Part shown: in pieces, positions 2,824 through 39,005 of the stretch
Position numbering within the stretch: the first letter of the stretch is position 1
How the letters are laid out: every line of letters starts with the position of its first letter
Assembly: GCA_963727805.1 (NCBI GenBank)
Contig: CAVSHF010000005.1
Span: forward strand, 224,001 to 288,000
DNA: 64,000 bases
Direction of reading: 5' to 3'
Origin: an uncultured Nitrospiraceae bacterium
Lineage (GTDB): Bacteria; Nitrospirota; Thermodesulfovibrionia; Thermodesulfovibrionales; Dissulfurispiraceae
Notes under the pieces: model-generated
Database searches by the model: none
What the model was told of the DNA's origin: nothing
The model's input: the letters and a program-made list of their open reading frames with translations, nothing else
Position numbers and translations under genes: made by a program

Positions 2824-3912
2824 CTATTGCATGCTGCCATACGAATGGAGTCCGCTCAAGAGCAGGTTGACTCCGAGATACGTGAATATAGTGCTGACGA
2901 ACCCTATGACCGCCAGGATCGCTATCTTCTTGCCCCTCCAGCCACGTATATGGCGGGCATGGATATAGAAGGCATAGACGAACCATGTGATAAGCGACCA
3001 GGTCTCCTTCGGGTCCCAGCTCCAGTACTTGCCCCAGGCCTGGTCTGCCCAGATAGCGCCGAAAATAAGGCCTCCCAAGGTGAAGATCGGAAATCCGATC
3101 GCGATAGTCTTGTAAGTAAGATCGTCAAGCACATCGGAGGTTAAAGAGAAGGAAATGATCAGCTTCTTAAGCAGATATCCGTACCTCCATACAAGGAAAA
3201 TAATAATGGCAAGCGCTGCACTGCTGATCGCTACTATCACGCCAGAGCCACTGCGAAAGGTGGCCTTGAAGAGATAATTCTGGATGAAAGCCTCCGGCGA
3301 CTTGGCTGTTATCCTTAACGAGATTACATCTATGCCCATAGCTATCAGGGAAGTCCCAAAGATGGCAAGGGTTACCGTCCAGAAAAAATAGGAGAGGCTC
3401 TTTCGGTCATCAGCAGTCACGGCGAGATACATGATCGCCGTAGCAAAGGATATGGCGAACGCAGCATACGCAATAAAGCTCATCGTCACATGAGCGAGAA
3501 GCCAGTTGCTCTGTAGAGCAGGTACGAGGGGCTGGATCTCCGCCGATATTCCGCCAATGCTTATGAAGGCAAGTGTCATTCCCGCAAGCGGCGTAACAAA
3601 CGCCCCAAAGGAGCGAGTTTTGTATTTCCATTCGATGACAAGGTAGCCCAGTATCAGGCACCAAACAAAGAATACAAGTGATTCATAGAGGTTCGTAAGC
3701 GGGACCGATCTCAGAAAGCCGAGTTGGCCGATGGTAGAGAATTCCTTCCAGCGCATGCCGAACGCTATAGTCTGAGATATAAAGCCAATGACCGTCGCGG
3801 TGGTTGCAATAATTCCTATCGTCGACTTCCTAAACGCAATGTAAACTATGTAGGCGACCATAGCCAGGATATATGCAATTGTGGCAACGCCGAAAAAAAA
3901 GGAACTGTCCAT
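2824..3912 (-). CDS. Cytochrome c biogenesis system II protein CcsA/ResC (CcsB in some naming schemes)
   Basis: WWD domain WADQAWGKYWSWDPKETW, C-terminal GLHSYG, multiple TM helices, follows resB. Confidence 0.95.
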   Translation of the reverse strand: MDSSFFFGVATIAYILAMVAYIVYIAFRKSTIGIIATTATVIGFISQTIAFGMRWKEFSTIGQLGFLRSVPLTNLYESLVFFVWCLILGYLVIEWKYKTRSFGAFVTPLAGMTLAFISIGGISAEIQPLVPALQSNWLLAHVTMSFIAYAAFAISFATAIMYLAVTADDRKSLSYFFWTVTLAIFGTSLIAMGIDVISLRITAKSPEAFIQNYLFKATFRSGSGVIVAISSAALAIIIFLVWRYGYLLKKLIISFSLTSDVLDDLTYKTIAIGFPIFTLGGLIFGAIWADQAWGKYWSWDPKETWSLITWFVYAFYIHARHIRGWRGKKIAILAVIGFVSTIFTYLGVNLLLSGLHSYGSMQ

Positions 3913-3940
3913 AAAAATCCTCCGTTACTCTTTACAGAAT

Positions 3941-5368
3941 CTAAGGCTTCTCTTCCAGATGTTTGACAAGCCTCTCGAGTGTCCGATCAAAGGCAATCCT
4001 GTTTTTATTGATGGATGAGCCGATAGTGAGCCTAGTCGCGCTTTTTTCTTCTGTGAGCCTTATCCATATCCTCGCATGGCTCATAAAAAACGCAGCATAC
4101 AGTCCTAACGCCATGATTATGCAACCCAGGTAAACAATCCAAACCCCAGGGTCCTTTCTGACCTGTAGTCCCGTGTATTGAACTCCCCAGAGGTTTTTGA
4201 GTTCGATAACACCCACTGGGGATTTCCAAGTTTCCGGATATCGTTCCAGTATCCACTGTCTAAATTTAGGCTTTCCGCCTTCCGAAATTTCGACAAAAAC
4301 CGCAGGATTAATCATCGCTTCTGCGAAGGTAAAGAGTTTTCCCGATTCGTCAACAGCCAGTGCGGGACTGAAGTCAACTACCATACCGACAAGGCTGGTG
4401 CCTTCAATGGTGAAAGGCTGGTTAAATTTTGCAGCAACAGCCTGGCCCTTTCCGTTTGTGGGGGTGATGACGAACTTGAAAATAGCATTCTTATTTGGTG
4501 AAAAGCCGTAACTCGATTGATAAAACGTGATGCCCTTATAGGTGAGAGGTGTATTGACTTCGATCTCCTTCTTCAACACCTCATGTCCCTGTTCGAGAAC
4601 GGTGAGCATGCTTTTATACGATTTGGGACTGTTGGAATTCGGATAAAATGCAACCTCAAAATCATCACACCGTATTTCGAAGCCCAGAGGAATCTCCTGC
4701 CCAGCTCCTTTGTAAGCAACGGCGGAAGACGTGCCTTCCAGAAGGTTCAGATTACCGTTGAAGCCCAACTTCATGCCTACGACAGCACCGATCAGGATGA
4801 GGAGTATGCTCAAATGGGTAACATAAACACCAAGCCTACTGTATCGCCCCTTTTCTGCGCAGATCTGTGTCTTTCCCTCTGCTAGCCGAGCAATGCCCCT
4901 GAATCCAATTTTTTTTAGGCCTTCATTCGCTTTCTGCTCCGCTTTATCAATTTGACACTTAATAACAATTTCTCGTTTGGAGGTCATGGAATTTAACCGT
5001 TCCTCGCTCAAGGGCTTGACCGGTTCTTTAACAATCTTCCATATCTTCGGAAGACGGTCAATCGAACAGATGACAAGATTTGCCGCGAAGATGAATAGCA
5101 GGGCCATGAACCACCATGAGCTGAACATGTCGGTAAAGCCCATGGAATCGAGTACCTTGAATACCGAGGGCGCTGTCGCATCGCCGAAGAATTTCGTCAG
5201 CAGCTTTATGTTGCGCTCAGGCTCGGCCTGCTGTTCAATGATCGTGCCGACAATGGAGGTAACTGAAATAATCATGAAAATGACAACAGCTAGGGATACG
5301 GAAGTAAAGAGACGCCACACCCTATCAACAATGCCCTGTTTCCCTTGTTCTTTTCGTTTAGCTTCCAA
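3941..5368 (-). CDS. resB: Cytochrome c biogenesis system II protein ResB/Ccs1
   Basis: SIVGTIIEQ, FSSWWF, HLSILLIL, VNTPLTYKG, TGLQVRKDPG. Confidence 0.95.
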   Translation of the reverse strand: MEAKRKEQGKQGIVDRVWRLFTSVSLAVVIFMIISVTSIVGTIIEQQAEPERNIKLLTKFFGDATAPSVFKVLDSMGFTDMFSSWWFMALLFIFAANLVICSIDRLPKIWKIVKEPVKPLSEERLNSMTSKREIVIKCQIDKAEQKANEGLKKIGFRGIARLAEGKTQICAEKGRYSRLGVYVTHLSILLILIGAVVGMKLGFNGNLNLLEGTSSAVAYKGAGQEIPLGFEIRCDDFEVAFYPNSNSPKSYKSMLTVLEQGHEVLKKEIEVNTPLTYKGITFYQSSYGFSPNKNAIFKFVITPTNGKGQAVAAKFNQPFTIEGTSLVGMVVDFSPALAVDESGKLFTFAEAMINPAVFVEISEGGKPKFRQWILERYPETWKSPVGVIELKNLWGVQYTGLQVRKDPGVWIVYLGCIIMALGLYAAFFMSHARIWIRLTEEKSATRLTIGSSINKNRIAFDRTLERLVKHLEEKP

Positions 5369-21273: not shown

Positions 21274-22954
21274 AGGCTGTCCGACAATTATCGAAATTAG
21301 AGACAAATGACGGATGCCTCGCCATCCTGAAAACATAACGGGGCTATCTGCTTTATACATAGTATCTCCAGCAAAAGCTTCCTTGGCGTATGGCAGTAGT
21401 TGCCCTCTTTCGGAGGCTTTCCTCTTCCCTTCAGGCATTCCCATATCTTTTTCAGATTTACTGCCGTACAGGCAAGGTTAAATTCCGACCTTACCGAATT
21501 AATTCCTCTCGTCAGAAATGTTCGCAATCCTTTGTTCTCCTTGATATCGCCGATCACAGGTTCAACAATCTGTTGTCTAAGCTTATATATATATCTTGCT
21601 GCAGGCGTTTTCATTTTTTCAGTCATCGCATTGCAGTGAACTTCGTGAGGGAACACCTTCAGAGAGCGTATGCCGTCCTTCTGTTTGGTACACAGTCGCT
21701 GATGCTCACATCCCAAGCATCTCTGACCACGATAGACTCTCACCATCTTGTCCCTCTGTCTGTCAAAATGTTCGCCCAAGAATGTTAGCGGGTGATCAGC
21801 AGGACAAATATACTCATCCCTTTGTTTATTGTATGTAAAGTTCTTCTTGTCGTATGGGTTGTTTGCCCGCGTCCCACTATTGTCAGGCATGTATGCATCT
21901 ATCTTCCTGTCCGATAGAAATGCAATGTTCTCACCGCTAAAATATCCAGAATCAAAACTCCAAATAATACTATCAGCAATTCCGCCAAGATTCTCTGTGG
22001 TTTGTATAACCTGAGGTTGCAACTGGCTGACATCTGCAGCATTCTGCCCCACGTCACTAGCCAAAATGAACCCACCCTTATCCACTGTCACCTGAGGATT
22101 ATAAGAAAGCTCTATCCTGCCTTTCTTATTTTTCATAAAACGACTATCAGGATCTGTCGTGCTTACCTGCTTTAGCCCTTCCTCATTAACTTTGTCTTGA
22201 GCTCCTTGAAGACCTTCTCTGAGTCGACCTATAAAAACATGTCCTTCTTCTTTAGCCCTCTTAACATAGTACTGTGCAGCTTTCTGAACAAGTTTTTTGC
22301 CCTGCCGGGACAGTTGGTCGCTACCCCGTAGTTCACCGAACTGCCGATCCTCACTCTCATCAATCTCTGCCCACTCCTGAAGCTCACCATCGACAAAGCT
22401 TCTCAGAACCGCCAACTCCTCTTTTGTTAATACTCGCCTGTTTGATGCATTTGCCTTCACTTTGGTTCCATCTGTCGACAGATGCGACAAATCCAACAAT
22501 CCTTCCTCTTTGGCAAAACTAACTGTGTGCTTGAAGACTTCCTTTAGTAGATCAGGGTTGTTCTTTCTGAAATCGCTGATAGTCCTGAAGTCAGGAGTCA
22601 GCTTCTCCGCCAAATATATATACACCACGTTCTCTCTGGCATTGCGTGCCAGTCGACGAGATGAGCGCACCCTGTCCAGAACTCCCATGATCAGCAACTT
22701 CACCAGCATTTTTGGATGATATGCCGGATGTCCGGCACCTGAATAGCGGATATCGAAGCAACCATAATCCAGGGAGTCAACCAATCCTTCAATGAGAAAA
22801 CAAATATGATCTTCGGGTATCATATCTTCTAAACTCGGCGGCAGTAGCCAGGATTGCCCTCCATACGACTCAATGTATGCCATCGGGTGTACTCCTTGAT
22901 ATCGTTCTTAAATATATTCTACCACCGGATAACTTGATAATTGTCGGACAGCCT
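21274..22954 (-). mobile_element. IS1182-family insertion sequence, apparently complete
   Basis: Perfect 19-bp terminal IRs AGGCTGTCCGACAATTATC; 6-bp direct repeat GCAAGC at 21268-21273 and 22955-22960; single transposase. Confidence 0.93.
21297..22883 (-). CDS. IS1182-family DDE transposase
   Basis: LLPPSLEDMIPEDH, PAYHP, PDFRTISDFRK, DGTKVKANAS, TDPDSRFMK, DSGYFS, VEPVIGDIK. Confidence 0.95.
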   Translation of the reverse strand: MAYIESYGGQSWLLPPSLEDMIPEDHICFLIEGLVDSLDYGCFDIRYSGAGHPAYHPKMLVKLLIMGVLDRVRSSRRLARNARENVVYIYLAEKLTPDFRTISDFRKNNPDLLKEVFKHTVSFAKEEGLLDLSHLSTDGTKVKANASNRRVLTKEELAVLRSFVDGELQEWAEIDESEDRQFGELRGSDQLSRQGKKLVQKAAQYYVKRAKEEGHVFIGRLREGLQGAQDKVNEEGLKQVSTTDPDSRFMKNKKGRIELSYNPQVTVDKGGFILASDVGQNAADVSQLQPQVIQTTENLGGIADSIIWSFDSGYFSGENIAFLSDRKIDAYMPDNSGTRANNPYDKKNFTYNKQRDEYICPADHPLTFLGEHFDRQRDKMVRVYRGQRCLGCEHQRLCTKQKDGIRSLKVFPHEVHCNAMTEKMKTPAARYIYKLRQQIVEPVIGDIKENKGLRTFLTRGINSVRSEFNLACTAVNLKKIWECLKGRGKPPKEGNYCHTPRKLLLEILCIKQIAPLCFQDGEASVICL

Positions 22955-31732: not shown

Positions 31733-32215
31733 ATGAAAATCTCAAGAAGAACACGATACGGTTTCAGACTGATGGTCGAACTGGCTATTAATTTCGACAA
31801 AGGACCCCTTTCACTTAGAGAGATTGCAAGAAAACAAGGTATCTCCGAGAAATATCTCGAGCAGATTATCATTCAACTCAAAACGATGGGGCCTGTTACA
31901 GCTGTGCGCGGGCCAAAAGGTGGGTACATGCTTTCCCTGCCACCCTCACAGATAACTCTCAGATCGCTCTTCGATATTCTTGAAGGCTCCGATGGAATCG
32001 TAGAATGTGTGCAGGATCCTTCGTTGTGTAAACGAGTCGGCAGCTGCATCAGCCGTGAATTATGGGTAACATTAGAGAAGAGTATTCGCGAAACGCTCAA
32101 CTCCACAACTTTGGAGGATTTGATAACAGGCAGGCTGGAACATCTGAATACTTCCAGATCCGGAATTACTAGGTCTGCCAAGTCCATTAACAGTCGTCGC
32201 AAGCCGACAACATGA
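31733..32215 (+). CDS. Rrf2-family regulator with three IscR-like Cys residues
   Basis: RYGFRLM, ISEKYLEQI, RGPKGGY, C..C..C in ECVQDPSLCKRVGSC. Confidence 0.93.
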   Translation: MKISRRTRYGFRLMVELAINFDKGPLSLREIARKQGISEKYLEQIIIQLKTMGPVTAVRGPKGGYMLSLPPSQITLRSLFDILEGSDGIVECVQDPSLCKRVGSCISRELWVTLEKSIRETLNSTTLEDLITGRLEHLNTSRSGITRSAKSINSRRKPTT

Positions 32216-32341
32216 CGGGAGGTGAATTATTGAAATAACACCCAGGGAAGCTTAGACTATCAAGTAAGTGCATTTGGACATTATGTGCCAAAACACTCTG
32301 AGATAGTGTGGAGTATCAATTAACAAATTACGGAGGTCAAA

Positions 32342-33469
32342 ATGAGGAGATTAATAATTACCCTTTCGTTCCTAAGTGTGGCAGCCATCGTTGGTTTTGT
32401 CTGTTTCTATGGCATTGTTGATAACAGCATAGCGGCAAATATGTCTGCGGATGATTGTTACACAATACCGGGTGAGGCTCTTGATGTAAAGGTGATTGAT
32501 CCGCCCCAAAACATAACCTTTAACGGCATATCCTATATTGCCGGTCATGGTGGACATATTGCTGTCATTGATATGCGGACCATGAAGTCACCGACGGATC
32601 TCGAAAAAGGCAGGATTGTACTTACGGAGGCAGGATCCGAGATGGAAGGAAAGATAGCCGGCATGAGTTTTGAGCAAGTCAAGAAGTCAGGGGGAACCCA
32701 CGGTCAGGCTCTGGTTACTGAAAAGGGGCAAAAGGTTCTCGTTGCTGGCACGCTGAGTGGAAACGTCTATAAAATAGATCTCGCAACGGGGAAGAAACAA
32801 GGTCCTTTCAAAGTCGGCGAAAAGTTCTGCGGTGCTATCGTAGGACCGGACGGGAAAATATACCTGGAGGATATGGCCGATGGTAATGTTTACATCTGGG
32901 ACTCCGGCACACTGAAAACGGTTGACAAGATGCCGGTGGGCAAGGCCGTCTGTGGCATCCAATGGACGAAGAATGCCAAAAAAGCATACATAACTGACAT
33001 GCCTACGGGTACAGTGTATGTATACGACTGGACAACGAAGAAGAAGATCAAAGAGATAACGAGTCCAGAAATGACATTTATACACCAGGCGAGGATGACT
33101 CCTGACGGGAAGTATCTCTGGGTAAGTGCTCCCAATGAATTTGATCCCGGCCTGAAACCCGGTACGCATAAGAGCCAGATTATCATTATCGACACGGCTA
33201 AGGACGAGATCATCAAGCGGTTTGTTCTGCCTGACGCACTTAGACCTCACGATTTTGCGTTCACAAGCGACGGCAAATATGCTTTAATTTCGTCCAGGAC
33301 ATACGGTGATGACAGCGTAATGGCTGTCATGGATCTTAAGAATGCACATATTGTCAGAGAAGTTTCAGCTTGCGCAAGCTGCCACAAACAATACGGTGTG
33401 GAGGTCAAAATTGATCAGGGATCTCCGCTTGTTTGCGGTATTGAAGTGGATTGGCTGGCAAAAAAATAG
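32342..33469 (+). CDS. Exported YVTN/YncE-like beta-propeller with C-terminal CxxCH
   Basis: GGAGG RBS, N-terminal hydrophobic segment, repeats ending PDGK/SDGK, CASCH at 33371-33385. Confidence 0.85.
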   Translation: MRRLIITLSFLSVAAIVGFVCFYGIVDNSIAANMSADDCYTIPGEALDVKVIDPPQNITFNGISYIAGHGGHIAVIDMRTMKSPTDLEKGRIVLTEAGSEMEGKIAGMSFEQVKKSGGTHGQALVTEKGQKVLVAGTLSGNVYKIDLATGKKQGPFKVGEKFCGAIVGPDGKIYLEDMADGNVYIWDSGTLKTVDKMPVGKAVCGIQWTKNAKKAYITDMPTGTVYVYDWTTKKKIKEITSPEMTFIHQARMTPDGKYLWVSAPNEFDPGLKPGTHKSQIIIIDTAKDEIIKRFVLPDALRPHDFAFTSDGKYALISSRTYGDDSVMAVMDLKNAHIVREVSACASCHKQYGVEVKIDQGSPLVCGIEVDWLAKK

Positions 33470-33499: not shown

Positions 33500-33536
33500 A
33501 TGGAAAGGTGGGCATACTCTTAGCCCACCTTTCCAT
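33500..33536. terminator. 14-bp stem hairpin after the propeller gene (terminator or mRNA stabiliser)
   Basis: ATGGAAAGGTGGGC-loop-GCCCACCTTTCCAT. Confidence 0.7.
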
Positions 33537-33695: not shown

Positions 33696-34904
33696 ATGAT
33701 GTCACGACTGAACATAACATCGTTTGCGATTAAAAACCTGAGAAGGAAAGTAATACGCTCCCTCTTGCTCTTCATGTCCGTAGCTGTTGTAACCGGCACT
33801 CTTTTTTCGGCGACCGTCTTCATCTCGAGCATGAAAAACGCTTTAAATATAGGGACCTACAGACTGGGTGCAGATGTTCTTGTCGTCCCCGAAAAGTACG
33901 CTGCGGATGCCCGATCGGCTTTACTTGCAGGAGAGCCCACAAGTTTCTATATGAATAGAGATGTTCTTAATAAAGTAAGAAAGGTTGATGGGGTGCGAAA
34001 AGCTTCCCCGCAACTTTTCATAAAACCGACCTCCTTCACTTGTTGTTATAGCGTGAATGCCTTTCTTGTGGCTTTTGATCCTGAGACAGACTTTACGATT
34101 ACTCCATGGCTTGCTAAAAATCTAAAAAAGCCTCTCGTCGGAAACGAAGTCATCACGGGAAGGAGCATGCCCCTCATAGCGGGAGATTCTATTAGTTTTT
34201 TCGGCACGTTATTTAAGGTCGCGGGGACAATGGAGTTGACGGGTATAAAATTTTTCGATCAGTCCATCTTCATGACCATGGATGCCGCTTACAAAATGGT
34301 CGAAGATTCTAAAACTAAGTCGATGCAACCACTTAGCTTAGATAGAGATAGTATTTCTACTGTGCTCGTCCAAATAGAAGATGGAATGACCCCCGACAGG
34401 GTCGCCATCCGCATAGAGCATGATGTCGATGGCGTTCGAGCCATTGCATCGGATGAGGTCATTAGCACAGTAAGAAAACAGTTGATGGGTCTTCTTAAGG
34501 GTATATTTGCGATTAGCGCTCTGCTTTGGATTCTTTCTCTCGTTATGATGGGGTTTGTCTTTTATATGATCGTTAATGAGCGTCAGAGGGAGTTGGGCCT
34601 GTTGCGGTCAATGGGAGCGAAAAAAAGACATGTGTTCAGACTCATCATAACTGAGGCCGTTATAATTTCAACACTCGGTGGTATCGCTGGCTTGATAGGC
34701 GGCTCGGTGCTTCTTCTAGCGTTCAAGGATATTATACTTCACTACCTCAAATTGCCGTACTTGTTGCCTCCCGTGACGTTTCTGATCGAATTAATCTTTG
34801 GAGCCGTGCTGTTTTCCTTAATAACAGGGCTTCTTTCTTCTCTTTTCCCCGCCATTTTTGCAAGCAACATGGAGCCATATGAAGCAATCAGAAAAGGAGA
34901 ATAG
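33696..34904 (+). CDS. FtsX/MacB-family ABC permease with periplasmic Cys-Cys motif
   Basis: KNLRRK..RS, RLGADVLVVP, TCC, VNERQRELGLLRSMGA, four TM helices. Confidence 0.92.
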   Translation: MMSRLNITSFAIKNLRRKVIRSLLLFMSVAVVTGTLFSATVFISSMKNALNIGTYRLGADVLVVPEKYAADARSALLAGEPTSFYMNRDVLNKVRKVDGVRKASPQLFIKPTSFTCCYSVNAFLVAFDPETDFTITPWLAKNLKKPLVGNEVITGRSMPLIAGDSISFFGTLFKVAGTMELTGIKFFDQSIFMTMDAAYKMVEDSKTKSMQPLSLDRDSISTVLVQIEDGMTPDRVAIRIEHDVDGVRAIASDEVISTVRKQLMGLLKGIFAISALLWILSLVMMGFVFYMIVNERQRELGLLRSMGAKKRHVFRLIITEAVIISTLGGIAGLIGGSVLLLAFKDIILHYLKLPYLLPPVTFLIELIFGAVLFSLITGLLSSLFPAIFASNMEPYEAIRKGE

Positions 34905-34919
34905 GATGGAGGTTCACCT

Positions 34920-35558
34920 ATGAGAAAAATCCTTCAGCATATAATGCAAGGGGAAGTGCCGCTGGTGTTGATCATTATTCTTTTACTAGTTGTCTCATGC
35001 AAGAAAGAGGAACCGCAAACTAATCCGCCATCTACTCAGGTATTAAACTCGTCTTCAAGCGAGTCCGTATTTGTCGAGGTAAATAAAAAGCTCAAAGAAA
35101 AGCCTGACGATGCAGAGGCGCTATATCACCTCGCAGACATCTACGACCGTAATGAACAGTACGTGGAAGCTATTGACACATATAAGAAAGTTGTAGCAAT
35201 AAAGCCGACAATGGGGTATGCATACCTTAAAATGGGTACGGCTTATGATCGCATTAACCAGCCTGACGAGGCCGTAAAAGCCTTCAAGAAAGCCATAGAA
35301 TTGATGCCAGAAAATCCAGTCGCGTACAACAATCTCGGCGTTGCTTATGGAAAACTCCGCATGCTCGACAATGAAATAGCAGCCTTAAAAAAAGCTATTA
35401 AAATCAGATCCAACTACTCATCGGCCAGATATAATTTAGGCATGACCTATATTAAAACAGGGAATAAAAAGGCTGCATTAAAGGAATATGAATCTCTGAA
35501 GAAGCTAGATGAGGGGGCTGCAGAGTCTTTGCTGCAGGAGATTAATCGCACCTCATAG
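34920..35558 (+). CDS. TPR-repeat lipoprotein
   Basis: Lipobox VVSC, about four TPR units (AYNNLG, ARYNLG). Confidence 0.88.
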   Translation: MRKILQHIMQGEVPLVLIIILLLVVSCKKEEPQTNPPSTQVLNSSSSESVFVEVNKKLKEKPDDAEALYHLADIYDRNEQYVEAIDTYKKVVAIKPTMGYAYLKMGTAYDRINQPDEAVKAFKKAIELMPENPVAYNNLGVAYGKLRMLDNEIAALKKAIKIRSNYSSARYNLGMTYIKTGNKKAALKEYESLKKLDEGAAESLLQEINRTS

Positions 35559-35575
35559 CAACATGGAGCAGACCG

Positions 35576-36253
35576 ATGATAGAAGTTAAAGAGCTTATAA
35601 AGAGCTACTCGATTGACGGACAGATTTTTAAGGCCGTAGACGGTGTATCTTTTACAGTCAGCAGAGGAGATATGGTTTCGATAGTCGGTCATTCGGGCAG
35701 CGGTAAGACTACCCTGCTCAGTTTGCTAGGTGGCCTGACAAAGCCTGATTCCGGAAGCATTGTTATCGGCAGCGAAAACATCTTGTCCATGACCGATAAT
35801 ATCCTTTCAGAGTTCAGGAATAGAAAGATCAGCTTTATCTACCAATTTTCCAGTCTCATTCCTACACTTACTGTCTTGGAAAATGTTATTTTGCCGACCG
35901 TTTTCAGATCGCAGCGGCAAAACGTCGCCAGTCATGCTCTTGAACTCCTGAGCATTGTCGGCTTGCAGAATAAAATAAATGCTTACCCATCGCAGCTGTC
36001 TGGCGGGCAACAGCGACGCGTCGCAATTGCACGCGCTTTCGTGAATGATCCGGAACTAATCCTCGCCGACGAACCAACTGGAGACCTCGATGAAGAAACT
36101 GAGGCTGAGATGATGCAATTTTTCTCCTCAATGAACCGCGACAATGGGTTGACGTTTCTAGTAGTTACTCATAATACAGAACTCGCCAAGAAGATCGGCA
36201 GGCAACTGCGGATGCAAAATGGAGTTCTTCAGGAGGTAATTGGCAATAGCTGA
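35576..36253 (+). CDS. LolD/MacB-like ABC ATPase
   Basis: GHSGSGKT, LSGGQQRRVAIARA, ADEPTGDLD, VVTH. Confidence 0.95.
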   Translation: MIEVKELIKSYSIDGQIFKAVDGVSFTVSRGDMVSIVGHSGSGKTTLLSLLGGLTKPDSGSIVIGSENILSMTDNILSEFRNRKISFIYQFSSLIPTLTVLENVILPTVFRSQRQNVASHALELLSIVGLQNKINAYPSQLSGGQQRRVAIARAFVNDPELILADEPTGDLDEETEAEMMQFFSSMNRDNGLTFLVVTHNTELAKKIGRQLRMQNGVLQEVIGNS

Positions 36254-36547: not shown

Positions 36548-36910
36548 TTAATCGCCCGCGAGTATGCGGTAAATCTTTCCGGCTTCATCGGTACTGATAG
36601 AGGATATTACTTCGAGATTAGGAAGCCCCGCTATTTTCCATGCCTTCATGGGGTCGATGAATTCCTCGCTAATACATTCCCGGGGTTTGTGGACATTCCT
36701 GCACACCGCGCGAAGTATTGGAAAAGAATTATACTGCCGGTAGTACTCCCTCATGAACCTGATGATGTCGATCCGCTCTCTAGTGAGTTCTCCAACCCCG
36801 AGGTGATCGGCGATGGCGCTGGCAACCTTTTCGTTCCAAGTATCCTCGTTTACAAGAAATCCGTCGTCATCAAGTTCGACCTTTACCGATCCGTATTCGA
36901 GTATGGGCAT
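36548..36910 (-). CDS. TusE/DsrC/DsvC-family protein lacking the C-terminal cysteines
   Basis: LDDDGFL, WNEKVA, IIRFMREYY, AWKIAGLP; no terminal Cys arm. Confidence 0.85.
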   Translation of the reverse strand: MPILEYGSVKVELDDDGFLVNEDTWNEKVASAIADHLGVGELTRERIDIIRFMREYYRQYNSFPILRAVCRNVHKPRECISEEFIDPMKAWKIAGLPNLEVISSISTDEAGKIYRILAGD

Positions 36911-36930
36911 CGCTCCCTCCCGCGAGGCGG

Positions 36931-37509
36931 CTATTTCAGCCGTGCTTCTGAAGCCGCCCAGTTAATATTCTTAAAAAATGCCTCGATATAGTCGGCCCTC
37001 TTGAGACCATAGTCGAGCATGTAGGCATGTTCGAAGACATCCATGATCAGGAGAGGGACGCAGCCAGCCGGATGTGCCACATCGTGCTCATTGATCCAGA
37101 AATTAATAAGCAAGCCGCTTGCGACGTCCTGATAGAGAACTGCCCATCCGATACCACGCATCGCACCAACAGCTTTGAAATCCTTTTCCCATAATTCGTA
37201 ACTGCCAAATTGTTCGGCGAGCTTCTTTGCGAGCTTGCCATTCTTGTCGATGCCGGCTTTGCCTCCGAGGTTCTCAAAATAGAATTCATGCAGCCGCATG
37301 CCGTTGAATTCCCATCCAAGCCTTCGCTTGAGCTCGGCAAATTCAGGAAGTGCAGTCTTGCCATCTTTGAGCATCGAGCTGAGAGTATCAAGGACCTTGT
37401 TGGTGTTAGTGACGTAACCTTGGTAAAGCGTGAAATGATTCTTGAGAAGGGTTTCGCTGAACCCTGCCATTCCAATAAGACCCGCAAAATCTTTAGCCGT
37501 ATAAGCCAT
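36931..37509 (-). CDS. Fe/Mn superoxide dismutase family protein
   Basis: NHFTLYQGY, LHEFYF, GIGW, DVFEHAY. Confidence 0.92.
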   Translation of the reverse strand: MAYTAKDFAGLIGMAGFSETLLKNHFTLYQGYVTNTNKVLDTLSSMLKDGKTALPEFAELKRRLGWEFNGMRLHEFYFENLGGKAGIDKNGKLAKKLAEQFGSYELWEKDFKAVGAMRGIGWAVLYQDVASGLLINFWINEHDVAHPAGCVPLLIMDVFEHAYMLDYGLKRADYIEAFFKNINWAASEARLK

Positions 37510-37641
37510 TTTGTGACCTCCCTTAAAGTTGAGTATATGACAGACAGGATACCCTGTCGACGGAACGGTAACTGCCGGTCTCGTCTTTATGAAATCAACC
37601 TGATGAACACGCCCATTTTTTAGGTGAGGTCATGCTCTATG

Positions 37642-38157
37642 TCAGGATGTCATCTTCTTTATCAGATTGACGACGCCTTCATAATCGGGATGGTTCGTCA
37701 CCTCGGGCACGATCTCTTTGAGCCTGATGATATTATCCTTGTCAATAATAAAGATAGAACGGGCAAGGAGACGCAATTCTTTAATCAGAACACCATACGC
37801 AGACCCAAAGGAAGCATCACGATGGTCAGAGAGTGTCTTGACCCTGTCGATACCTGCCGCGCTACAAAACCGCGCTATCGCGAACGGAAGGTCCATACTA
37901 ATGTTGATGACCACCACATTGTCTGAAAAGTTAGCAGCCTCTTGGTTAAACCTCCGCGCCTGTATGTCGCAGACCGGAGTGTCAAGCGATGGGGTTACGC
38001 TGATCACCTTGATGTTACCTTCGAAATCTTTTAGCCTTACCTCTTTGAGATCGCTGTTGAGTGCCGTAAAGTCGGGGGCCTTATCCCCTACCCTCAAGTC
38101 TGGCCCGACCAACGTAAGGGGGTTTCCGTGAATGGTTACAACGCCTATTCTTTCCAT
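37642..38157 (-). CDS. tpx: Thiol peroxidase
   Basis: PSLDTPVC, ISMDLPFAIARFC, LARSIF, HPDY. Confidence 0.96.
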   Translation of the reverse strand: MERIGVVTIHGNPLTLVGPDLRVGDKAPDFTALNSDLKEVRLKDFEGNIKVISVTPSLDTPVCDIQARRFNQEAANFSDNVVVINISMDLPFAIARFCSAAGIDRVKTLSDHRDASFGSAYGVLIKELRLLARSIFIIDKDNIIRLKEIVPEVTNHPDYEGVVNLIKKMTS

Positions 38158-38463
38158 GCATCCTCCATGCTCTTATATAAATTTATATATACACTTTTCT
38201 GGATTCACGCGCAACCCTTTACCATTGCAATCCAGCCACCGGACCCCCTCAGCAGGCGCTCCTGCTTCTATTGACTATGGCGAGCTTTGCGATCTGATCC
38301 TATTAGGCTCATATTAACGAAAACTATCGAACAAGGATGCGTCCCAGAGTTCAGAAAAGGGCAGCCCCGCGTTCGCGTTCCCGGGCGCGTTAACAGCCTG
38401 CGACAGTTTTTCCTTCTTGGAGGCCTCTCTTGCAGGTGTTGCAGTTAGGGCTTTATCAGATAC

Positions 38464-38790
38464 TTACTTGAAAGACCTAATATAGGCGACTATATCGGCC
38501 ATGTCGGCCGATTTCGGGTCAATGGCCTTTCCATTGATTGCCCCGACAATACACGCATTAACCTGTTTTGCCAGACCGCCCTCTGTCTTGAATTCCGTCT
38601 TGTCAGCAACCTTTTCTAAGCCTTTACCGTTTAGATGACATTCGCTGCATGCCTTGTTACCACCAGCAAAGGTCGCGTCGCTAAAGAGCGCCTTGCCCTT
38701 GTCCGCATTCCCCTTCTCTGCAGCAACGCCGATGGAACATACTATCCCCAAGACAACAAGTGTCATCAGAACTACCCGTAATAATTTCAT
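38464..38790 (-). CDS. Small exported monoheme c-type cytochrome
   Basis: GAGGTG RBS before ATG 38790, signal peptide, CSECH, distal VNAC. Confidence 0.88.
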   Translation of the reverse strand: MKLLRVVLMTLVVLGIVCSIGVAAEKGNADKGKALFSDATFAGGNKACSECHLNGKGLEKVADKTEFKTEGGLAKQVNACIVGAINGKAIDPKSADMADIVAYIRSFK

Positions 38791-39005
38791 TCTCTTCACC
38801 TCGTCACGTGATATAGGAGCACCGGTGAAACGACGCGCTCATGGTCTAAAGTTTACCAATAAAAAGGGTCCTTCACAATGTCTTTAGCTGCAGCCAAGCA
38901 TAAGATGCGTTCCGAACCGTCAGAACACCCCGTCTGGATTTGTTTGTCTTCTGGCTTTTTTACCTTTGGAGGTACTATGTACATCGATTGCAGGGGATGA
39001 TCATT

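Follow-up and report, generated by a model that had tools for sequence, protein, structure and literature searches.

A predicted exported six-bladed propeller family with a conserved His/Cys ring and a heme c motif: a candidate heme-copper protein of sulfur-cycling bacteria

Propeller gene, operon and predicted fold

The window, a stretch of 64,000 nucleotides from an uncultured Nitrospiraceae bacterium, carries a gene for a predicted exported β-propeller protein, followed by genes for an ABC permease, a TPR protein and an ABC ATPase (Table 1). The operon in the window consists of these four genes only; the NosL, YeeE and FtrD-like genes of genome G000 are located elsewhere, outside this operon. 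A sequence-only reading of the window had described six blade-start motifs carrying His or Cys at the same position, and all six were found in the ORF: GTHGQAL (H120), KFCGAIV (C163), AVCGIQW (C204), FIHQARM (H248), RPHDFAF (H303) and LVCGIEV (C365). The GHGGH segment (H69/H72) and the one CASCH (C344, C347, H348) named in the same reading are also there, and both system II maturation genes, CcsA and ResB, were located in the window. The N-terminus reads as hydrophobic, and a Tat-like motif occurred in 0/120 homologues.

Table 1. Features of the window (positions in nucleotides; residue numbers refer to the propeller protein unless a permease is named)
Feature	Position	Strand	Conservation or basis
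System II cytochrome c maturation genes: CcsA (2824-3912), ResB (3941-5368)	2824..5368	-	host machinery, unlinked
Rrf2-family regulator, three Cys	31733..32215	+	adjoins propeller gene in one other mapped locus; not a conserved part
Propeller gene, six blades, 375 aa (P0001)	32342..33469	+	ORF and AlphaFold2 model
Predicted Sec-type signal peptide, about residues 1-32	32342..32437	+	read from sequence
H69-G-G-H72; H72 likely second heme ligand	32546..32557	+	H72 invariant; tracks CxxCH
H120, blade 1 ring position	32699..32701	+	56/79 members; 20 of the remaining 23 have H162
C163, blade 2 ring position	32828..32830	+	invariant, 96/96
M178, blade 2 loop between strands B and C	32873..32875	+	invariant, 96/96; sister family 43/43
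C204, blade 3 ring position	32951..32953	+	invariant, 96/96
D219-M220, blade 3 loop between strands B and C	32996..33001	+	invariant, 96/96; N-M in sister family
H248, blade 4 ring position	33083..33085	+	invariant; aligns with L-NosZ blade-start His
H303-D304 ... R319, blade 5	33248..33298	+	invariant; spacing equals TcDH His528-Asp529-Arg544 (PMC6504805)
CASCH heme c attachment motif (C344, C347, H348), short helix, blade 5-6 loop	33371..33385	+	invariant; model; loop missing from sister family
C365, blade 6 ring position	33434..33436	+	invariant, 96/96
MacB/FtsX-type ABC permease; periplasmic Cys-Cys (permease C116-C117) at 34041-34046	33696..34904	+	Cys-Cys 60/60; follows propeller gene in 63/71 loci
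TPR protein, lipobox-like LVVSC	34920..35558	+	near propeller gene in 37/82 loci
LolD/MacB-type ABC ATPase	35576..36253	+	cluster near propeller gene in 55/82 loci

Residues 33-375 were modelled with AlphaFold2 using the 96-sequence alignment described below. The model (pLDDT 90.8, pTM 0.90) consists of six four-stranded blades; in the sixth, strand 364-371 is joined by three strands from the N-terminus. As the sequence-only reading had anticipated, all six ring residues are located at the first strand of their own blade or immediately before it. M178, M220 and H72 are in loops that connect the second strand of a blade to the third, and R319 is at the end of a second strand. In propeller topology all these places are on the same face as the ring positions. 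From the model we infer that the six ring side chains would converge.

Six-bladed folds ranked first in VIA-align and no match stood out. The best was nidogen (Z 25.3, rmsd 2.7, 253 aligned residues), and the score to NosZ (2IWF) was lower (Z 19.6, rmsd 3.8). TcDH and AztD were absent among the 50 VIA-align matches listed, which excludes neither. PAL (3FW0), a Zn/Ca lyase, and other six-bladed NHL/YWTD proteins share the blade number (PAL: Z 22.0, rmsd 2.9 Å, 246 residues), but PAL is only 13% identical and lacks a heme. With Foldseek the TM values to seven-bladed folds were about 0.5. Pfam gave generic propeller matches for P0001, and the ESM Atlas returned two clusters of the family's own, with automatic names, followed by generic YncE clusters. 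Longer fused forms were not found at E 1e-40 among 7999 candidates, which is weak evidence.

A second Shine-Dalgarno-like element, GGAGGTG, lies at 32218-32224. It was found 35-170 nt upstream of the start in 53/78 family genes vs 7/675 other genes of the same loci, the control genes not being restricted to operon-first genes, and it may stabilise an abundant mRNA. The gap between the propeller and permease genes contains, at 33500-33536, a perfect 14-bp inverted repeat with a 9-nt loop, unflagged by the terminator scan, which could give more enzyme than helper transcript. The promoter and terminator scan was at chance level, and no upstream operator was shared (a sigma-54 site occurred in 1/78 family genes). 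Just downstream of the operon, on the opposite strand (36548-38799), are genes for a DsrC-like protein, an Fe/Mn SOD, a thiol peroxidase and a small SoxA/TsdA-like cytochrome c, none of them conserved neighbours. A transposase-like ORF is located at 21297-22883, and a copy of it at L167:1846-3432 shares the first 60 residues.

Conservation of the ring and of the heme motif

The first similarity search gave 573 matches. The 120 listed are 71-97% identical to the query, and those that carry names come from Nitrospirota and are annotated as YncE or as hypothetical proteins; the 120 are too similar to serve as a test of conservation. An unfiltered HMMER search showed a small, discrete family, and conservation was read from an alignment of 96 sequences whose members are 31-87% identical to the query. 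The invariant polar columns were H72, K161, C163, M178, K192, C204, D219, M220, H248, H303, D304, R319, D324, C344, C347, H348 and C365. When the comparison was limited to full-length members taken from loci, leaving out nine duplicate loci, fragments and rows below 300 bits, all 16 core residues, including the two Met, were present in 77 of 79. The same 16 residues were still invariant among 10 representatives with a minimum pairwise identity of 27%. In ordinary YVTN repeats, His or Cys occupied the equivalent position in 25/538 cases (4.6%; 123 non-family proteins), and 14 unrelated propellers (from L141-L157) were without the His/Cys set. Judged by these sequence comparisons, the ring exceeds what chance would give.

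The ring position of blade 1 is not universally H120. H120 was present in 56 of the 79 members and H162 in 20; neither was found in 3 and both in none. This swap looks like compensation, and it rests on about two clades. The strict count of three His and three Cys proposed earlier is uncertain, since H120 can be exchanged for H162 and C163 and C204 could form a disulfide. Outside the ring, H69 is variable (H, E or R), and H72 is constant.

Several degenerate paralogues keep H72 and CxxCH and have lost part of the ring (L031:6264-7223, L131:13178-14146, L112:28-867, P0168 and P0143); the first two adjoin a second, longer MacB permease. They are possible electron-transfer or pseudo-enzyme subunits. 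Two degenerate paralogues retained C163 and C204 and lost C365, H303 and both Met, a third is without both C163 and C204, and P0143 lacks C163 only. A C163-C204 disulfide fits the joint survival of the two Cys in two of these proteins. The two residues are also on adjacent blades, and the top structural matches are non-redox six-bladed propellers, which would suit a scaffold or adaptor protein whose Cys form structural disulfides and whose ring binds Zn, Ca, Fe or nothing. We regard such a role as very improbable: three ring Cys cannot all pair with one another, His and Met are conserved as strongly as Cys, and three different copper-protein folds have been recruited beside the gene (see below).

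Extra Cys residues occur in the flexible N- or C-terminal tail in several lineages (P0124, P0125, P0133, P0144, L032, L066, L107, L129-L132, L134, L137, and in the window C39 at 32456-32458), and are not universal. A function as swinging arm was considered and set aside because of this sporadic occurrence.

Conservation of CxxCH was complete (96/96), and together with the hydrophobic N-terminus and the CcsA and ResB genes it gives the sequence features expected of an exported c-type cytochrome. One relative, P0129, has a second CxxCH within a cytochrome c550-like insert. A sister family was collected with P0264 as query (44 relatives at E 1e-66 or better, of which 43 were aligned); its members, where named, belong to the Thermoleophilia or Actinomycetota. 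The profiles of the two families matched with probability 100 (E 8e-46), and the gap in this match coincided exactly with the CxxCH loop. In the 43 sister sequences the ring is H97 (42), C159 (42), C203 (42), H260 (40), H303 (41) and C352 (41), accompanied by M174 (43), M219 (42) and R319 (42), whereas CxxCH was found in 0/43. The sister-family model (pLDDT 90.1) is six-bladed, with the same residues at the strand starts. Taking into account that the ring is intact in proteins without CxxCH, we infer that ring and heme are separable modules. H72 was present in 11/11 CxxCH-type rows, including paralogues that had lost much of the ring, and in 0/2 heme-less rows. Because what the sister family lacks is exactly the CxxCH loop and H72, these alignments make H72 the likely second heme ligand.

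Comparison with known propeller enzymes

The sequence-only reading recognised no characterised family, and neither did the searches: no NCBIfam equivalog cut-off was reached and no curated family fits. In the literature searched, mostly of non-subscription journals, no description was found of the propeller family or of the candidate selenocysteine-containing permease mentioned below. There are partial likenesses to several enzymes.

According to PMC9456337, TcDH is a periplasmic propeller with three Cu in a central tunnel that passes electrons to cytochrome c, and the active-site residues listed in PMC6504805 are His, Lys and Asp, without Cys or Met. The profile of blades 4-5 matched TcDH (PDB 5F75) residues 455-518 with E 2.4e-7; the likeness to TcDH was confined to one blade-sized match (E 1.7e-4 in another search) and was not full-length. 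The spacing H-D-(15)-R of H303, D304 and R319 is that given for TcDH in PMC6504805 (Table 1), which may be a general blade feature; by counting within the E 2.4e-7 match, H303 would fall near TcDH His482. TcDH differs in having seven blades instead of six and in that its heme is on a separate protein. Membership was rejected on the basis of the six blades, the lack of full-length similarity, and the three invariant ring Cys and two Met.

The ring is conserved, as had been proposed by analogy with nitrous oxide reductase, at positions where NosZ and L-NosZ have His in profile alignments: H248 and H303 align with L-NosZ blade-start His, and H303 with one NosZ His (partial alignment). A further likeness to NosZ is the combination of NosL with an ABC maturation machine (NosDFY-NosL). 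NosD was absent from the neighbours scanned, which were part of all neighbours, and NosL was found in a minority of loci. NosZ has seven blades, seven His binding CuZ and a C-terminal CuA domain, whereas the propeller family has six blades and three ring Cys; the CuA motif Cx3Cx3Hx2M occurred in 0/121 propeller sequences. Membership in NosZ clade I/II was rejected because of the six blades, Cys at 3/6 ring positions and a protein that ends at blade 6. L-NosZ (NF052460) was the best NCBIfam match, with a best E of 4.5e-17 among the 96 members, but membership in clade III was rejected as well, the score being 52.5 bits vs a cut-off of 700 and about 750 for true L-NosZ genes. A transporter of the MacB type is also encoded in the nosZ clusters of clade III (PMC13685413).

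The AztD profile (NF038015) matched 9/96 members (best E 7.4e-5), the query being absent among the listed matches. Cytochrome cd1 proteins (NirS, NirN, NirF) also combine a propeller with heme c, and the NirN match had E 1.9e-9. The propeller of cytochrome cd1 has eight blades and its cytochrome c part forms a domain of its own, whereas our protein carries its CxxCH on a loop of 20 residues, and heme d1 genes do not recur nearby. Membership in the cytochrome cd1/NirN group was rejected, since the model has six blades and no cytochrome c domain. The sulfite reductase MccA/SirA combines a heme c beside Cys-bound Cu(I) with a NosL-type chaperone and a sulfur substrate, but it is an octaheme protein, not a propeller, and none of the sequence or structure searches matched it to our protein.

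MccA, with its heme-copper site, and the cd1 nitrite reductase are parallels for an arrangement in which the heme itself is the catalytic centre over the propeller axis, the ring being its distal pocket with one soft metal beside it. The strand topology of the model puts the CxxCH loop on the face that carries the ring, and the cd1-type profile PF02239 scored 32.9 bits vs a cut-off of 25.5 (residues 170-341, covering positions 193-354 of 368). The intact ring of 43 heme-less relatives argues against this arrangement, as does the tracking of CxxCH by H72, which suggests a closed bis-His heme; we regard a catalytic heme as quite unlikely. By these comparisons the propeller would work like TcDH or NosZ and is a member of neither, nor of L-NosZ.

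Neighbouring genes, hosts and proposed function

Neighbouring genes were counted in 82 loci, obtained from 91 by dropping nine duplicates (L047 and L067 were also lost to the ORF filter). The link with the downstream ABC genes, implicit in the sequence-only reading, proved general: in loci with at least 1.8 kb of downstream sequence a MacB-type permease followed within 3 kb in 63 of 71. Genes within 8 kb of the propeller gene included the ATPase (55 of 82 loci), the TPR protein (37), the NosL cluster (18), DUF4418 (16), YeeE (15), FtrD-like (10), TlpA-like (5) and PCuAC (3); NosL or PCuAC was present in 21. All 15 YeeE genes were immediately upstream of the propeller gene and shared its strand, and they occur on more than one tree branch. 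One lineage (8 loci) has a selenium-type YedE (TIGR04112, above the cut-off) and a cysteine desulfurase, divergently oriented.

The gene order in the sister family is propeller, cupredoxin-fold lipoprotein, permease, ATPase, and its permease is about 41-44% identical to that of the propeller family. The cupredoxin gene adjoined the sister gene in 7/7 loci scanned; 6/7 of the encoded cupredoxins are without the type 1 copper Cys and are Met-rich. At locus L177 the gene upstream is a canonical plastocyanin-like one, and the permease is missing.

Cys, His and Met are the usual ligand set of Cu(I), in both families no other neighbour is as constant as the ABC pair, and the sister protein, without heme, is encoded beside a Met-rich, Cys-less cupredoxin. 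All this would also suit a non-catalytic periplasmic copper(I) store or chaperone, a client or partner of the MacB ABC complex, in which the heme sets the redox state of the metal. AztD, a zinc chaperone propeller, is a precedent for such a protein, and the FtrD-like (10/82) and TlpA-like (5/82) neighbours would agree with it in that they resemble, in our view, P19/Fet metal-uptake operons. In contrast, the Lys, Asp and Arg residues surrounding the site are invariant and sequences of different genera are 70-85% identical, which suits a catalyst, P0129 has a second heme domain, no FTR1 permease or copper ATPase was found among the neighbours scanned, and AztD matches remain at 9/96 members and E 7e-5 at best. 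A mere store or chaperone is in our opinion rather improbable.

In the phylum 67 of 301 sampled genomes had a match, and as that of G258 was a generic propeller without the residues, 66 were counted as carriers. Named carriers include Thermodesulfovibrionales, magnetotactic Nitrospirota, Deltaproteobacteria, Anaeromyxobacter, Methylomirabilales and a Euryarchaeota archaeon. The dsrA gene was present in 64/66 carriers, the two misses being genomes of 74% and 65% completeness. It was also found in 157/301 genomes overall, and in family f5 dsrA was present in 11/11 genomes and the propeller gene in 0/11; the link between the two genes is confounded by kinship. NosZ was found in 15/301 genomes, six of which are carriers, and L-NosZ in 7/301, none of them carriers, so that 60/66 carriers had no match to either. 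Terminal enzymes were compared in 80 of the 157 dsrA-positive genomes (35 carriers, 45 non-carriers): a heme-copper oxidase or NO reductase subunit was present in 34/35 carriers vs 32/45 non-carriers and NapA in 3/35 vs 9/45. Neither co-occurrence identified a substrate in these 80 genomes, and as kin are not independent, the counts are hints only.

These numbers bear on the alternative that heme and copper are as proposed here and that the protein acts on a nitrogen oxide or on oxygen, as an alternative reductase of N2O, NO or nitrite or as an enzyme that handles O2. The high frequency of oxidase or NO reductase subunits in carriers, the rarity of NosZ and L-NosZ in them, the L-NosZ match (52.5 bits), the NosL neighbours and the MacB-type transporter of clade III nosZ clusters (PMC13685413) would all agree with such a substrate. 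On the other hand, six carriers also have NosZ (6/15 NosZ-positive genomes), NapA is rarer in carriers, the CuA motif is absent (0/121), no denitrification gene recurred among the neighbours scanned, and YeeE suggests sulfur. We consider a nitrogen oxide or oxygen as substrate unlikely.

Contigs of relatives in metatranscriptome data covered the propeller gene in 4/4 runs; these contigs are mostly less than 90% alike, the runs have small shares, and transcription cannot be read from them.

The propeller family is real, strongly conserved and uncharacterised, and there are good grounds to propose that it has a new site of heme c and copper, with a maturation machine of its own. That the cofactors are heme and copper is, in our estimate, probable. 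Copper is preferred because Cys, His and Met form its usual Cu(I) ligand set and because three copper-protein folds occur beside the gene, and the YeeE neighbours, the hosts and the likeness to TcDH speak for a sulfur substrate. The reading we favour, although we give it slightly less than an even chance, is a periplasmic heme c and multi-copper oxidoreductase acting most likely on small sulfur species. The protein would be exported by Sec and receive its heme at C344/C347 from CcsAB, with H348 and H72 ligating the iron of a one-electron relay. Two to four Cu would be held by C163, C204, C365, H248, H303, H120 (or H162), M178 and M220, with K161, D219, D304, R319 and D324 as second shell. As NosDFY-NosL matures NosZ, the MacB ABC complex would load the site via its Cys-Cys, copper being supplied by NosL, PCuAC or the cupredoxin. 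The site would then oxidise or reduce a sulfur anion of the thiosulfate, polysulfide or sulfide class in the fashion of TcDH, and YeeE would move substrate, product or cluster sulfur. Against this reading stands the fact that copper helpers are missing from 61/82 loci and YeeE from 67/82, and that no electron carrier is evident in the sister family, since 6/7 of its cupredoxins are without the type 1 Cys.

The fully specified version is more speculative, and we put it forward as doubtful: a six-bladed propeller with a Cys3 His3 Met2 copper-thiolate cluster, possibly including inorganic sulfur, wired to a bis-His heme c on a grafted 20-residue loop and assembled through a MacB-type Cys-Cys/Sec-Cys gate, would carry out an unrecognised periplasmic sulfur-cycling step in Thermodesulfovibrionia, including magnetotactic lineages. 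According to a 2026 review, the tetranuclear copper-sulfur cluster has been seen only in N2O reductase, and sulfur delivery is unclear (PMC13685413). If a related scaffold held a Cys/His/Met site, this would be a new copper centre. In the compact operon of propeller, MacB permease and ATPase, cofactor loading by a MacB-type ABC complex is directly testable, which also bears on the maturation of clade III NosZ. With the gene in 66/301 sampled genomes of the phylum, the propeller may point to a periplasmic reaction that is missing from the picture of common sulfur cyclers of sediment, peat and aquifers.

The sister-family permease genes have an in-frame TGA at the first Cys codon of the Cys-Cys pair in 8/8 loci showing the site, with a hairpin downstream (L171:9907, L172:7403, L173:2194, L174:3642, L175:9935, L178:1914, L180:2014, L181:1490), which makes this Thermoleophilia-like MacB permease a candidate Sec-Cys selenoprotein. 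A cassette without a family name, encoding NosL, a small protein, a permease, an ATPase and a Cys-rich membrane protein, is present in two copies in G000 (L166:5899-9530, L167:6030-9621) and follows the propeller operon in four loci. In one lineage an octaheme cytochrome without an NCBIfam match is encoded near the operon (L053:14810-16711), and two homologues of it are present in G000. In P0128 a propeller domain (residues 1490-1822), its last ring Cys replaced by Gly, is part of a 2470-aa protein resembling an archaeal surface protein.
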